From NCBI GenBank assembly GCA_934254715.1, contig CAKQLT010000002.1, positions 928 to 64,927 on the forward strand: a stretch of 64,000 nucleotides of DNA, read 5' to 3'. The position numbers and the translations under genes are program-made. Below are positions 13,147 to 32,691 of the stretch, piece after piece (positions within the stretch are counted from its first letter, which is position 1; the number at the start of each line of letters is the position of its first letter). Source of the DNA: an uncultured Clostridia bacterium. GTDB lineage: Bacteria; Bacillota; Clostridia; Christensenellales; CAG-917. The notes below the pieces were generated by a model. That model was given only the letters and a program-made list of their open reading frames with translations. It ran no database searches and was not told where the DNA came from.

Positions 13147-13188
13147 AATTATTAATTATTCATTATAAAGGCGCTCGCAGATGCGAGC
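13147..13188 (+). repeat. AT-box plus GC hairpin composite repeat, copy 1
   Basis: AATTATTAATTATTCATTAT... is followed by the hairpin GCTCGC-AGAT-GCGAGC. The first 21 nt are identical to the copies at 17273 and 22541-22566 (the latter reverse-complemented). Confidence 0.7.
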
Positions 13189-27738: not shown

Positions 27739-28516
27739 TTTGCACATTCACACAAACAAAAGCGACGGCTCTCTCTCGCCCAGAGAAGTCGTGCGCTGGG
27801 CAAAAAACAAGGGCTTGGACGTTATGGCAATCACCGACCACGACACCGTGGCGGGGCTTGACGAAGGGCGCGACGAGGCGCAGAAAGTCGGCATAAAATT
27901 TGTCGGCGGAATTGAACTGAGCACCTTTTCAATTTGCGAAATCCACATTTTAGGATACAATATCGACTACAAAAACCCCGATTTCTTGCAAGAACTGCAA
28001 AAAGTGCAAGATATGCGCAAGGATAGAAATATCCGCATAGGTCAAAAACTCAAAGACCTCGGAATCAACGTTGATATTGATTTTTCGGCAAACGGACTCG
28101 GGCGTATGAATATGGCGCGCCAACTCGTGAAAGAAGGGTATTGCAGAGATATTAACGACGCTTTCGACAGATACCTTAAACCCGGGGCGAAAGCGTATTG
28201 CGAGGCAAAAAGACTTACGCCCGTCGAGGCGGTGAAACTCATAAAAAAATACGGCGGTTTCGCTTCCGTCGCGCACCCGAAAAAATACTTGCTCGACAAA
28301 CGCCTCGATATGTTGCTCGGCGGTCTTAAACAATTCGGACTCGACGGAATGGAACTCAACTATCCCTCGCACAACGAGCAAGACAAAAAGAACTTTGCCG
28401 CACTTATGGAAAAGCACCGCTTGTTGCCTACGGGCGGAAGCGATTTCCACGGTGACGAGGACAAGAACTTTGTTTACGACCTCGACCAAAGAACGGCGAA
28501 AAGATTGCACGTTTAG
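27728..28516 (+). CDS. PHP-domain phosphoesterase (TrpH/YciV-like)
   Basis: The ATG at 27728 overlaps the rmuC stop by 11 nt. The motifs are ADLHIHTNKSDGS, AITDHDT and GGSDFHG. Confidence 0.85.
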   Translation: MKADLHIHTNKSDGSLSPREVVRWAKNKGLDVMAITDHDTVAGLDEGRDEAQKVGIKFVGGIELSTFSICEIHILGYNIDYKNPDFLQELQKVQDMRKDRNIRIGQKLKDLGINVDIDFSANGLGRMNMARQLVKEGYCRDINDAFDRYLKPGAKAYCEAKRLTPVEAVKLIKKYGGFASVAHPKKYLLDKRLDMLLGGLKQFGLDGMELNYPSHNEQDKKNFAALMEKHRLLPTGGSDFHGDEDKNFVYDLDQRTAKRLHV

Positions 28517-28551
28517 CAGAGATTTTCTGCCAAACGCGCAATCAACTATAT

Positions 28552-28635
28552 CGTTGCTTTCGCAACGGTGAAATTCTCGCTTTGCGAGAGTGAAATTGTG
28601 ACTTACGTCACAATGAAATTGCGGCTTTGCCGCAG
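28552..28635. repeat. Tandem hairpin array, cluster 1 (4 stem-loops)
   Basis: The first stem-loop is CGTTGCTTTCGCAACG. Three more units start at 28574, 28596 and 28619. Each has the form (G/A)TGAAAT + T-stem-CTTxG-stem-A, with stems CTCGC, GTGAC and GCGGC. Confidence 0.85.
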
Positions 28636-28721
28636 TTGCGGATGATTTGAAATCAATTCTTCAGTTTGTCCTTGCGAGGAATAACGAATATTGCGACGTG
28701 TAGGTCAAGGCGAAGCCACAT

Positions 28722-28761
28722 TACGCTACGCTAGATTCCCACGCTTACGCTCGGAATGACG
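28722..28761 (+). repeat. 40-nt dispersed element, copy A
   Basis: TACGCTACGCTAGATTCCCACGCTTACGCTCGGAATGACG is near-identical to the copies at 31900 and 32554, in the same orientation. Confidence 0.85.
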
Positions 28762-28785
28762 AAATGGTGGGACACCCACACCCGA

Positions 28786-28999
28786 TTGCGACTCGCGTCA
28801 CAATGAAATTGCGGCTTTGCCGCAGTGAAATTCTCGCTGTGCGAGAGTGAGATTGAACTTCGTTCAGTGATATTGTCCTTGCGGACAGTTATATTGTGAC
28901 TTGCGTCACAGTGATATTGCGGCTTTGCCGCAGTGAAATTCTCGCTTTGCGAGAGTGAAATTGTGTCTTTGACACAATGAAATTGCGGCTTTGCCGCAG
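28786..28999. repeat. Tandem hairpin array, cluster 2 (10 stem-loops, ~22-nt period)
   Basis: Units start at 28786, 28809, 28831, 28853, 28873, 28894, 28917, 28939, 28961 and 28983. The stems are GCGAC/GTCAC, GCGGC, CTCGC, GAAC, GTCC, GTGAC, GCGGC, CTCGC, GTGTC and GCGGC. The linkers are GTGAAAT, GTGAGAT, GTGATAT, GTTATAT and ATGAAAT. Confidence 0.85.
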
Positions 29000-29080
29000 T
29001 TGAGGAAGATTTAGATGTCCTAAATGCAATTAACCGACAGAGTTAACGCCGCAGTTGAGGAATATTCAAATGTTCTTAAT

Positions 29081-29137
29081 AAAAAATAACCCCTTAACGC
29101 GGGCAACGCCGCGGTTAGGGGTTATTTGATTTTTTTG
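29081..29137. terminator. Bidirectional intrinsic terminator (copA on the minus strand; any plus-strand read-through from the hairpin array)
   Basis: An A-run is followed by AATAACCCCTTAACGCGG...CCGCGGTTAGGGGTTATT and then TGATTTTTTT. Confidence 0.7.
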
Positions 29138-29173: not shown

Positions 29174-31861
29174 TTATTTTATGCCTTTTACGTCGTAGCC
29201 GGCGTTCTCGACGGCGGACTTTAAGACGGAATCGTCTACGTTCGTCGCAAGCGTGACTACAGCGTTTTTATCGTCGAGAGATACCTCGACTTCCGTTACG
29301 CCGCTTACCTTTGAAAGTGCGTCCTTGACGTGCTTTACGCAGTGCATACACATCATTCCTTCGATTGAAATCGTTTTTTGCATAGTGTTTCCTTCCTTTT
29401 GAGTATTTTGTGCCGAATCGGTTCGATTTTCGCTTGCAATATCGTCGTTTGCGACTTCGCCGCTCGTTTCGTTCGCCGTTTGATTTTCTACGACCGAAAC
29501 CTCGATATTTTGCGCGTTTTCGGCAGTTATAGTTTGAGTTTGCTCGCCGTCTTTATGCGCGGATTCGTTTGATTTTACCGCTTGTATAACCTCGTTCACG
29601 TCGAAGTTTACGGGCGGTTTTTTGCGTTTGGTGTGTTTGTTCAAATTGACGAGGTTGAGCCTCAAAGCGTTGAGCACCACGCATACGCTCGAAAGGCTCA
29701 TCGCACCCGCGGCAATCATAGGATTGAGCGTGACGTTTATCGGGTCGAAAGACAGCACACCCGCCGCAATCGGTATGCAAATGACGTTGTATATGAACGC
29801 CCAGAACAAGTTTTCTTTGATGTTGAGAAGGGTGCGTCTCGAAAGCGTGACGGCTTTTGCCACGTCCGAAAGGCTCGACTTCATAAGCACTACGTCCGCG
29901 CTGTCTATGGCGATGTCCGTGCCCGCGCCGATTGCTATGCCGACGTCCGCGCGAGAGAGGGCGGGCGCGTCGTTGATTCCGTCGCCGACCATAACGACTT
30001 TGCCGTACTTTTTGAGGGAAGATACCACGCGGTCTTTGTCTTGCGGCAATACGTCGGAAATGACCGCGTCAACGTTACACTCGTCCGCAATGGCTTTTGC
30101 GCTGAGCGAGTTGTCGCCCGTGAGCATAACCACGCGCAAGCCTTGTTTTTTGAGGGTGGAAATTGCTTGCGCGCTGTCGGGTTTTATCTCGTCCGCAACC
30201 GCAATCACGCCCGCGATTTTGCCGTCGAGAGCGAAGTAAAGAGGCGTTTTGCCTTGCTTCGAGAACGCGTTTGCGACGGCTTCAGCCTCGTCCGTAAGCA
30301 ATGAATTTTCACGCATTAACGAGGCGTTGCCGATGAGTGCGTCGAGTCCGTCGAGCGTGCCTTTTATGCCGTGTCCCGACAAGTTTTGGAAGTTGTCGGC
30401 GGCAGGAATTTCGCCGTTTGTAATCTCTTTTGCGCGGTTGACGATTGCCGAAGCGATGGGGTGTTCGCTTCCCGATTCGAGCCTTGCGGCAAGCAAAATC
30501 AAGTCGTTTTGTCCGACCGTTCCGAGCGACTTTACGTCGGTTACGACGGGCGTTCCTTTGGTTATCGTGCCCGTCTTGTCAAGCACGATTATATCCGTTT
30601 TACCCGCTTCTTCAAGGGCGGTTGCGGTCTTGAAAAGCACGCCCGCTTTCGCGCCTTTTCCGTTGCCTACCATAATCGCGACGGGGGTTGCGAGACCCAG
30701 CGCGCAAGGGCAACTTATGACCAAAACGCTGATTGCGTGTTTGAGGGATTGTTCGACGTCTTTGGTGATTGAAATCCAGACTATGAAAACGAGCAAAGCA
30801 ACCAAAATGACGGTTGGTACGAATATTCCAGACACTTTATCTGCCGTTTTTGCAATCGGGGCTTTCGACGCGGACGCGTCCTCGACGAGTTTTACTATGC
30901 CCGAAAGTGTGGTGTTTTCGCCCACTTTTTGCGCTTTTACGGTTACGAATCCGTTGAGGTTGGTAGTGCCCGAAATGACGCTCGAACCCTCGCTCTTGTC
31001 AACGGGCATACTCTCGCCTGTGACGGACGATTCGTTGACCGTCGTTTCGCCGCTCACTATCACGCCGTCGGCGGCGAAGTTCTCGCCCGGGCGCACCGTG
31101 AACAAGTCGTCCACGTTCAAATCGGATACGGGGATTTCCGTTTCCGTTCCGTCTTTAAGCACTCGAACCGTTTTCGGCGCAAGATTCATAAGTCCTTTGA
31201 TTGCCGAAGTGGTTTTGCCTTTGCTGTACGCTTCCAAAGTTTTGCCGAGCGTTATGAGCGCGAGTATCATCGCCGCCGACTCGAAGTATAAGTTGTGCGC
31301 GAGGTGGTGAAGATGCTCGGGGTGTACGCCTGCTTGTATCATAAGCGCGACGCTGTATACGAAGGATATTGCGCTGCCCATCGATACGAGCGTGTCCATA
31401 TTCGGCGCGCGGTGGATAAGGCTCTTTGTGCCGCTCACGAAAAACTTGCCGTTGACAACCATAATCACGAGCGACAGCACGAGTTCGTATACGGCGATTG
31501 CCATCGGGTCGTCCTTGAACGACAGCGGCCAGTCCCACATAACCACGCCCATCGAAACGTACATAAGCGGCAAGAGCAACGCGATAGAAATCGCAAGGCG
31601 AATCACCATAACGAGTATGGGATTCATTTTGTCTTTCTTTTCGGATTTGTCGCTCGCGAGGGCGGCTTTGTAACCCGCTTCCGCCACCGCTTTGCATATG
31701 TCTTTTGCCGTGAGCGGTGCGTCGTACTCGACGAGCATAGAGTTGGTCAAAAGACTGACGCTTACGCTCTTTACGCCGTCGAGCGCGCCCACGACTTTCT
31801 CGACTCTCGCCGAGCAAGCCGAACACGACATTCCCGATACGTTGAATTTTTGTTTTTCCAT
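29174..31861 (-). CDS. copA: Copper-translocating P1B-type ATPase with N-terminal and C-terminal HMA domains
   Basis: The RBS is GAGGAA. The N-terminal HMA carries GMSCSACSARVE. The core motifs are CPC (SCPCALGL), DKTGT, GDGINDAP and TGDN. A low-complexity linker leads to a second HMA (MQKTISIEGMMCMHCVKHV). Confidence 0.93.
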   Translation of the reverse strand: MEKQKFNVSGMSCSACSARVEKVVGALDGVKSVSVSLLTNSMLVEYDAPLTAKDICKAVAEAGYKAALASDKSEKKDKMNPILVMVIRLAISIALLLPLMYVSMGVVMWDWPLSFKDDPMAIAVYELVLSLVIMVVNGKFFVSGTKSLIHRAPNMDTLVSMGSAISFVYSVALMIQAGVHPEHLHHLAHNLYFESAAMILALITLGKTLEAYSKGKTTSAIKGLMNLAPKTVRVLKDGTETEIPVSDLNVDDLFTVRPGENFAADGVIVSGETTVNESSVTGESMPVDKSEGSSVISGTTNLNGFVTVKAQKVGENTTLSGIVKLVEDASASKAPIAKTADKVSGIFVPTVILVALLVFIVWISITKDVEQSLKHAISVLVISCPCALGLATPVAIMVGNGKGAKAGVLFKTATALEEAGKTDIIVLDKTGTITKGTPVVTDVKSLGTVGQNDLILLAARLESGSEHPIASAIVNRAKEITNGEIPAADNFQNLSGHGIKGTLDGLDALIGNASLMRENSLLTDEAEAVANAFSKQGKTPLYFALDGKIAGVIAVADEIKPDSAQAISTLKKQGLRVVMLTGDNSLSAKAIADECNVDAVISDVLPQDKDRVVSSLKKYGKVVMVGDGINDAPALSRADVGIAIGAGTDIAIDSADVVLMKSSLSDVAKAVTLSRRTLLNIKENLFWAFIYNVICIPIAAGVLSFDPINVTLNPMIAAGAMSLSSVCVVLNALRLNLVNLNKHTKRKKPPVNFDVNEVIQAVKSNESAHKDGEQTQTITAENAQNIEVSVVENQTANETSGEVANDDIASENRTDSAQNTQKEGNTMQKTISIEGMMCMHCVKHVKDALSKVSGVTEVEVSLDDKNAVVTLATNVDDSVLKSAVENAGYDVKGIK

Positions 31862-32489: not shown

Positions 32490-32553
32490 TTGAGTATAAA
32501 TCCGCATAGCGCGATAGTCAACGGAATTTCGGAATTTTTTTGAGAAAAAACAT

Positions 32554-32593
32554 TTCGCTACGCTGGATTCCCACGCTTACGCTCTGAATGACG
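32554..32593 (+). repeat. 40-nt dispersed element, copy C
   Basis: The sequence is TTCGCTACGCTGGATTCCCACGCTTACGCTCTGAATGACG. Confidence 0.85.
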
Positions 32594-32691
32594 ATGTGGG
32601 CGATTGACTTTGCCGCAACGCCGTTTGAGCAATGTTGTATAGCGTTTGTAATACATTTGCATTAAAAATGCGCACAAAGTGTCAAAATGTA

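Follow-up and report, generated by a model that had tools for sequence, protein, structure and literature searches.

The 64,000-nt stretch of DNA analysed here (hereafter the window) belongs to an uncultured Clostridia bacterium of the order Christensenellales (assembly GCA_934254715.1; 1.61 Mb in 126 contigs, 75% complete), and carries, between a PHP-family phosphoesterase gene and a convergent copA-type gene, an array of short hairpins that is the subject of this report. The stop codons of the two genes, at 28516 and 29174, enclose a convergent spacer of 657 nt, as the first-pass annotation of this DNA had stated. The array starts 36 nt 3′ of the PHP stop codon in the same orientation as the PHP gene, and lies between that stop codon and an intrinsic terminator shared by both genes (Table 1). 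The terminator was read from sequence and fold; a simple terminator scanner gave no entry for it.

Fourteen hairpins were found over 28552-28998 on the + strand, four in a first run (arm 1) and ten in a second (arm 2). They are joined by heptameric linkers (GTGAAAT, ATGAAAT, GTGATAT, GTGAGAT or GTTATAT) at start-to-start distances of 20-23 nt, and Tandem Repeats Finder reported periods of 21-22 over the array. All 13 linkers of the array lie on the + strand, and the first hairpin of arm 1 is preceded by CAACTATAT in place of the canonical heptamer. The number of hairpins, their coordinates (to within one base), the spacing and the conserved linker thus agree with the first-pass annotation. Its statement that the stems differ yet always remain self-complementary holds for 13 of the 14 hairpins, which are perfect, the exception being a C·A mismatch in the first hairpin of arm 2 (28787-28802); moreover, the stems are not arbitrary and follow a shared consensus (T-G-Y-S-S-C / loop / G-S-S-R-C-A).

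By count alone the heptamer is not over-represented in the window, where 44 matches compare with 36.6 expected; what sets it apart is its clustering. A hairpin-chain detector that made no use of linkers returned 639 chains of two in the real sequence against 312 in shuffled sequence and, because it was noisy at chains of two to three, was replaced by a test defined by linkers only, in which consecutive same-strand heptamers 18-26 nt apart were taken from the whole genome and hairpins were not presupposed. By this test 68 linker pairs were found against ~2.3 expected, and 78% of the inter-linker segments carried an end-anchored perfect stem of at least 5 bp, compared with 0.16% of shuffled segments; 44 of the 61 hairpin sequences in this set were distinct. 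No exact copy of an array hairpin occurs elsewhere in the window, and the five single copies that had been listed at 13173, 17188, 17303, 22511 and 56508 are other GC-rich, terminator-like hairpins.

The array is a member of an already catalogued family, Gut-1 (Rfam RF01706), which the first-pass annotation had missed and for which no function is known. An Rfam scan gave three + strand matches to Gut-1 RNA, at 28801-28878 (66.4 bits), 28543-28624 (63.4 bits) and 28909-28988 (62.4 bits), all above the gathering score of 50 bits and each covering model positions 1-77 of 77. The model consists of three hairpins with GUGAAAU between them. It was derived from 43 human-gut metagenome sequences, a source of the same kind as ours (uncultured human-gut bacteria), and was published as a fixed three-hairpin candidate small RNA, with organism, context and function not given and with the rating of a likely non-coding RNA based on covariation (Weinberg et al. 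2010, Genome Biol 11:R31, PMC2864571); its Rfam type is ‘Gene; sRNA'. A literature search returned nothing on Gut-1 besides that paper.

Unlike the published candidate, the element found here occurs at some 40 loci per genome. The genome holds 31 Gut-1 matches on many contigs and on both strands, and an independent scan found 43 arrays of at least two units, mostly of three to four, the longest being the window array and one on contig C25. Within the genus, 27 of 52 species genomes carry Gut-1 with up to 46 matches each (20-46 in sister species); every genome with a CopA at least 73% identical to ours is positive, and deeper branches are mostly negative. No match was found in any of 16 other families of the order. 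Of 149 genomes sampled evenly across the class, 27 were positive; these came from at least 13 families and mostly had 1-9 matches. Based on these genus, order and class counts, the Gut-1 family is patchy and usually low-copy, and has been amplified in the sub-clade to which this genome belongs. The search for copy number and orientation in this and related genomes, which the first-pass annotation had proposed, thus bears out a dispersed element.

The arrays share a polar anatomy, of which the three-hairpin Rfam model is a slice. Across loci the polarity is constant: a first hairpin is followed by n units of a GTGAWAT heptamer plus a 13-17-nt palindrome, and after the last hairpin comes an end motif, GTTGMGGAAKATT(YRAAT), so that the arrays are of 2-10 units with a defined end. 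Some loci without a gene have two such arms facing each other, with the two end motifs joined into a short AT-rich palindrome (GTTATGGAATATT-CAA-ATATTCCGCAAC; Table 1). Inversion of whole arms is seen only at such other loci; the units within the window arms are all direct, and the window copy, consisting of arms and end motifs only, is a one-armed orphan. Its unusual length results from local duplication, since arm 2 carries a duplicated 71-nt block of three units (28785-28855 against 28893-28963; 92% identical); the last unit plus end motif is also repeated in the window, at 95% identity. A larger array still is implied in a sister species (G004:C40:13694-14085), where six Gut-1 matches stand in register every 63 nt, as would ~18 units built from a three-unit block.

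The spacer as a whole is a mosaic of several repeat kinds, because other repeat families often attach after the end motif, including, at 28656-28790, a second and unrelated dispersed repeat termed module B (Table 1). The description of the spacer as built almost wholly from one kind of unit therefore does not stand, given module B and the end motifs. Some 15 partial copies of module B are spread over 11 contigs of the genome, and it is also present in the window at ~32550-32594.

Table 1. Features of the PHP-copA locus and, in the last three rows, related loci elsewhere (the first two of these in the same genome).
Feature	Position	Strand	Basis or remark
PHP-family phosphoesterase gene, 272 aa	27698..28516	+	ORF list and translation
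First hairpin of arm 1, CGTTGCTTTCGCAACG	28552..28567	+	sequence; also the first hairpin in 7/7 sister species
Arm 1, three heptamer-plus-hairpin units (TCTCGC.., TGTGAC.., TGCGGC..)	28568..28634	+	
Arm 1 end motif, GTTGCGGATGATTTGAAAT	28635..28653	+	array-terminating motif genome-wide; direct-repeat families D2/D3
Module B, GTCCTTGCGAGGAA...CTCGGAATGAC..., between the arms	28656..28790	+	blastn against own genome
Arm 2, ten hairpins with nine heptamers between them	28786..28998	+	
Arm 2 end motif, GTTGAGGAAGATTTAGAT	28999..29016	+	sequence; direct repeats
Solo remnant, GCCGCAGTTGAGGAATATTCAAAT: half of last hairpin plus end motif (29054-29071)	29048..29075	+	family D3, 85% identical to 28993-29025
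Bidirectional intrinsic terminator common to PHP and copA genes	29081..29137		long GC stem between A-run and T-run; fold
copA-type P-type ATPase gene, 895 aa, convergent with PHP gene	29174..31861	-	
Gene-less two-armed doublets	C5:30349-30561; C73:2968-3163; C7:12452-12654		
Module C loci	C5:24790-24900; C36:10220-10330; C4:17840-17950; C6:9480-9590; C101		
Imperfect-palindrome unit	C5:24916; C19:12989; C4:17962; C7:12577; L041-L045, L066		

Whether the arrays act as RNA was judged indirectly, from orientation, mismatches and folding. Orientation was counted in the genome and in 20 regions of a relative (G010), with genes called by a crude longest-open reading frame (ORF) heuristic: of the arrays in co-directional spacers, 20 are sense and 21 antisense, and 17 arrays lie in convergent against 4 in divergent spacers (p = 0.007), the latter being the pattern expected of any insert that is tolerated away from promoters. 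A structured RNA would give an excess of wobble pairs on the sense strand; yet among 218 linker-defined stems, 190 are perfect and the 28 with one mismatch divide into 10 G·T and 10 A·C among others, with no excess of G·U. Fold strength of arm 2 relative to shuffled sequence is about equal on the two strands (z = -8.3 on the + strand and -8.9 on the - strand). Taken together, none of the three tests points to a strand-specific RNA.

These results bear directly on the suggestion of the first-pass annotation that the region might be a protein-sponge RNA with 14 GUGAAAU sites. In such a model an RNA-binding protein would be sequestered, in the manner of CsrB or RsmZ, by 13 single-stranded GUGAAAU sites held between clamps, either on a non-coding RNA or on a long 3′-untranslated region (3′-UTR). 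The heptamers are indeed predicted to be single-stranded between the hairpins, and Gut-1 was rated a likely non-coding RNA from its covariation (PMC2864571). Against this stand the dozens of arrays that each genome has in either orientation, the equal folding of both strands without G·U excess, and an array length that varies between sister species; in addition, the motif sits in linkers with no cognate RNA-binding protein known, and the PHP-copA spacer gave two promoter-like matches at chance level but no dedicated promoter. The sponge model is thus very unlikely. A Csr/Rsm-type RNA, understood as a dedicated unit at a conserved locus with its motifs on one strand, was rejected on the same grounds, with ~43 loci on both strands and a content that is not conserved. 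A clustered regularly interspaced short palindromic repeats (CRISPR) array was rejected as well, in line with the first-pass annotation, which had called the layout the opposite of one: the constant part here is 7 nt and the variable part a 13-17-nt palindrome from a recurring set, whereas CRISPR arrays have repeats of 23-50 nt and unique, non-palindromic spacers.

Comparison of the PHP-copA site among species revealed rapid turnover. In all of seven sister species (PHP orthologues 96-99% identical) an array is present at the site, with the same first hairpin at the same distance, 36 nt after the PHP stop codon. Beyond that hairpin, however, the content differs in each of them, with 4, 4+7, 4+6 (plus extra repeat inserts), 4+5, 7, 4+5 and 4 hairpins, respectively, compared with 4+10 in the window. 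At this site, more distant species show Gut-1 of other flavours or no array, and the spacers of those without an array are too diverged to align. The solo remnant is also seen in sister species L042, L043 and L066. Array length is therefore not conserved at this site, and the comparison between relatives, which the first-pass annotation had proposed, came out in the way that it had taken to make a specific function unlikely.

The same comparison bears on the possibility that the PHP mRNA has co-opted the array as a functional element of its 3′-UTR, one that would block 3′-to-5′ exonucleases or insulate the convergent PHP and copA transcripts from each other. Some repetitive extragenic palindromic (REP) elements of E. 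coli, and the bacterial interspersed mosaic elements (BIMEs) that contain them, have been shown to do either. Such a role would fit the location of the array, after the PHP stop codon and ahead of the shared terminator, and its sense orientation, both seen in 7/7 sister species, as well as the genome-wide position of the arrays, 28 of 43 of which have a same-strand gene immediately 5′, often 0-85 nt away, and which prefer convergent spacers over divergent ones (17 versus 4). However, sense and antisense arrays are about equal in co-directional spacers (20 versus 21); the number of hairpins at the site ranges from 4 to 14 between species, so that no particular array is needed; and enrichment at 3′ ends would also be produced, for any selfish insert, by purifying selection against promoter disruption. 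On balance, a co-opted 3′-UTR element appears quite improbable.

A protein-coding gene is linked to some of the arrays. Two PF05635 genes (23S_rRNA_IVP; Avd-like four-helix bundle) were found in the genome, at 94.6 and 89.8 bits. The one on contig C82 lies directly behind tRNA-Arg(ccg), with a two-armed Gut-1 array before it and another arm after it; it encodes a protein of 120 aa (P0003) with matches to TIGR02436 and to the five-chain structure PDB 2rld. In five relatives (G010, G013, G004, G009 and G012) a PF05635 gene is located between two inward-pointing arms. The end motif (GTTGMGGAATA) stands between arm and gene on both sides, in the order ...hairpin-GTTGAGGAATATTTGAAT-(ribosome-binding site)-gene-...TATTCCACAAC-hairpin... 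A gene-less doublet is thus laid out like this cassette without its gene, which was either lost from the centre or inserted into it. In its full form the element accordingly consists of two inward-pointing arms around either the short palindrome or a PF05635 gene of ~120 aa.

Two side observations concern these genes. The C82 cassette (L121, G000:C82, 1115-1983) has on both sides a ~115-nt direct repeat, composed of a terminator hairpin and a three-unit Gut-1 arm, which looks like the duplicated junction of an insertion beside the tRNA gene. The second gene (L120, G000:C41, ~1240-2000) has as arms inverted AT-rich tandem repeats (AATTAATAATT)n without hairpin arrays, and is still faced by the TTGAGGAA / TTCCGCAA motif; the same AT-rich repeat occurs beside several other hairpins in the window, near 13150, 17290 and 22540, and before two Gut-1 arrays on C25.

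Across the 52 genomes of the genus, Gut-1 and PF05635 co-occur in 19, with Gut-1 only in 8, the gene only in 1 and neither in 24 (Fisher p = 5e-7, the genomes being kin and not independent). Among the eight with Gut-1 only, completeness does not exceed 76% in four, and three have no more than three matches. Since the positives are largely one clade, physical adjacency was given more weight than co-occurrence. Adjacency itself is infrequent: a PF05635 gene lies within 1.5 kb of two of the nine top Gut-1 loci of the genus, and most Gut-1 arrays are orphans without the gene. The window copy is among these and is not an array-gene cassette, as tblastn detected no PF05635 ORF or remnant in the window.

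One tentative, rather improbable reading of these data is that Gut-1 arrays are the structured inverted arms of a small, undescribed mobile cassette, the sole gene of which would encode a pentameric Avd-like protein that reads the heptamer-plus-hairpin units, with gene-less arms spreading and expanding as miniature derivatives. The Avd-like protein is in any case the obvious candidate for a reader of the heptamer, and nothing relevant on the function of PF05635 was found in the literature. Were the cassette reading true, it would give a function both to an orphan Rfam family and to the large orphan protein family PF05635/TIGR02436; the physical link in itself makes the two orphan families testable together.

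A related but unlikely explanation holds that the arrays are putative binding platforms for the Avd-like protein or another reader of heptamer and hairpin, the orphans acting in trans by titration, as nucleoprotein structures or as landing pads for the gene cassette, and DNA (as duplex, cruciform or single strand), not a specific RNA strand, being bound. It is consistent with the heptamer being the most conserved part of a unit whose stems vary, with the PF05635 genes that have arrays on both sides in five relatives and on C82, and with the presence of PF05635 in 19 of 27 genomes with Gut-1 against 1 of 25 without. The 22-nt period is close to two turns of B-DNA, and canonical arms of four to five units could be set beside the five chains of the PDB 2rld match, although equating a pentamer with five units is numerology. 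The co-occurrence, however, comes mostly from one clade; genome G017 has 23 arrays and no PF05635 gene; the C41 gene has AT-rich 11-nt repeats instead of hairpin arrays as arms; and two other families of the order have PF05635 but no Gut-1.

Several known systems resemble the element in part. REPs, of which a genome has tens, cluster in 3′ and convergent spacers and have stems conserved in sequence, and the units of BIMEs alternate in orientation. REP and BIME elements, and the REPIN-RAYT systems of E. coli and Pseudomonas, share with Gut-1 arrays the short extragenic palindromes, the tens of copies, the 3′ and convergent location and a cluster content that varies between strains; unlike in REPs, the linker here is conserved and the stems vary (44 of 61 hairpins distinct), and unlike in BIMEs, the units of each arm are all direct. 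The REP-associated tyrosine transposase (RAYT; Y1 transposase, PF01797) is also missing: none was found in the genome, which is 75% complete, nor in four of five array-rich relatives, which are 94-98% complete. The first-pass proposal of a BIME-like REP cluster comes close as regards the multi-copy extragenic nature of the units and the turnover of content, but the units do not alternate and the RAYT/REPIN model was rejected.

The BOX element of Streptococcus pneumoniae is organized as boxA-(boxB)n-boxC, with a conserved boxB of 45 nt. Compared by layout, it too is a polar, modular intergenic repeat of a Firmicute with distinct end modules, variable tandem inner units and no transposase of its own; in contrast to the 45-nt, sequence-conserved boxB, the Gut-1 unit is of 22 nt and only its heptamer and stem consensus are conserved, and the two elements would not be expected to resemble each other in sequence. 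The intervening sequences in the 23S rRNA of Leptospira and Coxiella contain S23p/PF05635 ORFs, and so resemble the C82-type cassette in having a small four-helix-bundle ORF between inverted repeats near stable-RNA genes (on C82, tRNA-Arg). That cassette lies outside an rRNA helix, though, its inverted arms are heptamer-hairpin arrays, and the window copy has no ORF. Finally, the array-associated protein belongs to the same Avd-like four-helix-bundle family (PF05635, TIGR02436, PDB 2rld) as the Avd of diversity-generating retroelements; unlike there, no link to a reverse transcriptase was seen, RVT_1 being present in 14 of the 52 genus genomes without relation to Gut-1 and absent from our genome and from most array-rich ones, and a retroelement link of the Avd-like gene was therefore rejected.

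The array in the window is real and was largely accurately described; it adds to a known family a new orphan member of unusual length. Our preferred explanation, to which a probability of roughly 0.6 is assigned, is that it is an orphan, one-armed and locally expanded Gut-1 copy, that is, a dispersed and polar repeat acting at the DNA level, not a dedicated regulatory RNA. The palindromes would be kept or regenerated in DNA, by unequal recombination or slippage between the 22-nt units, by shuffling of units within the 9-nt A-GTGAAAT-T joints, or by template-switch ‘correction' of quasi-palindromes, which would alter both arms of a stem at once. Upkeep by template switching and recombination would yield co-varying stems without selection on RNA. 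The window copy was enlarged by duplication of a three-unit (~66-nt) block, and its content turns over between sister species. Because it lies 5′ of the shared terminator, the array is probably co-transcribed with the PHP gene and carried passively in its 3′-UTR, where its string of stable hairpins would influence the stability of the 3′ end only in a generic, REP-like way, if at all.

Several points weigh against this explanation. A purely neutral model does not account for the conserved single-stranded heptamer, which is presumably read by a protein or a mobilising enzyme, and no transposase or recombinase has so far been tied to the element. The first hairpin and its 36-nt position are kept in all seven sister species, for which a local function is possible besides shared ancestry, and the array may have an RNA role at the PHP-copA locus. 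The orientation counts rest on the crude gene calls described above. As to the linked gene, G017 is a real exception (93% complete, 23 Gut-1 matches, no PF05635 gene), the co-occurrence is largely clade-structured (all genomes with CopA at least 73% identical being positive) and so represents few independent events, and outside the family only one of the six top Gut-1 loci has PF05635 within 1.5 kb.

For the window itself the result is mostly a clarification: its striking ladder adds a further copy to a family already catalogued in 2010, and a locus-specific function is not needed to explain it. For Gut-1, listed as a small RNA, it means that in assembled genomes of a genus of uncultured gut Clostridia the element behaves as a high-copy, fast-evolving DNA repeat. 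It also serves as a warning that covariation in short perfect palindromes is no evidence for RNA.

Further repeats and a recurring unit type were noted in the course of the analysis. At other loci module B (GTCCTTGCGAGGAA...GATTCCCACGCTTACGCTCGGAATGAC) often stands directly after Gut-1 end motifs, and a third repeat, module C (CTTGCGTGCGAAGCACGC..CACCAAGCA..GCGGAATTGTGG..GAGTTTTTGTCC.TCTTATTTTGA.AG), follows the end motif at at least five loci (Table 1). The sole GIY-YIG match in the genome falls within a 634-aa UvrC-like ORF. Within the arrays, one type of unit, [AC]CTC[AG]C-TNC-G[CT]TCG[TG] (for example ACTCGCTTCGCTCGT and CCTCACTGCGTTCGG), recurs with conserved sequence as an imperfect palindrome with a 2x2 internal mismatch (Table 1), and may be a distinct functional word; CCACGCTGTGCGTGG usually comes after it.

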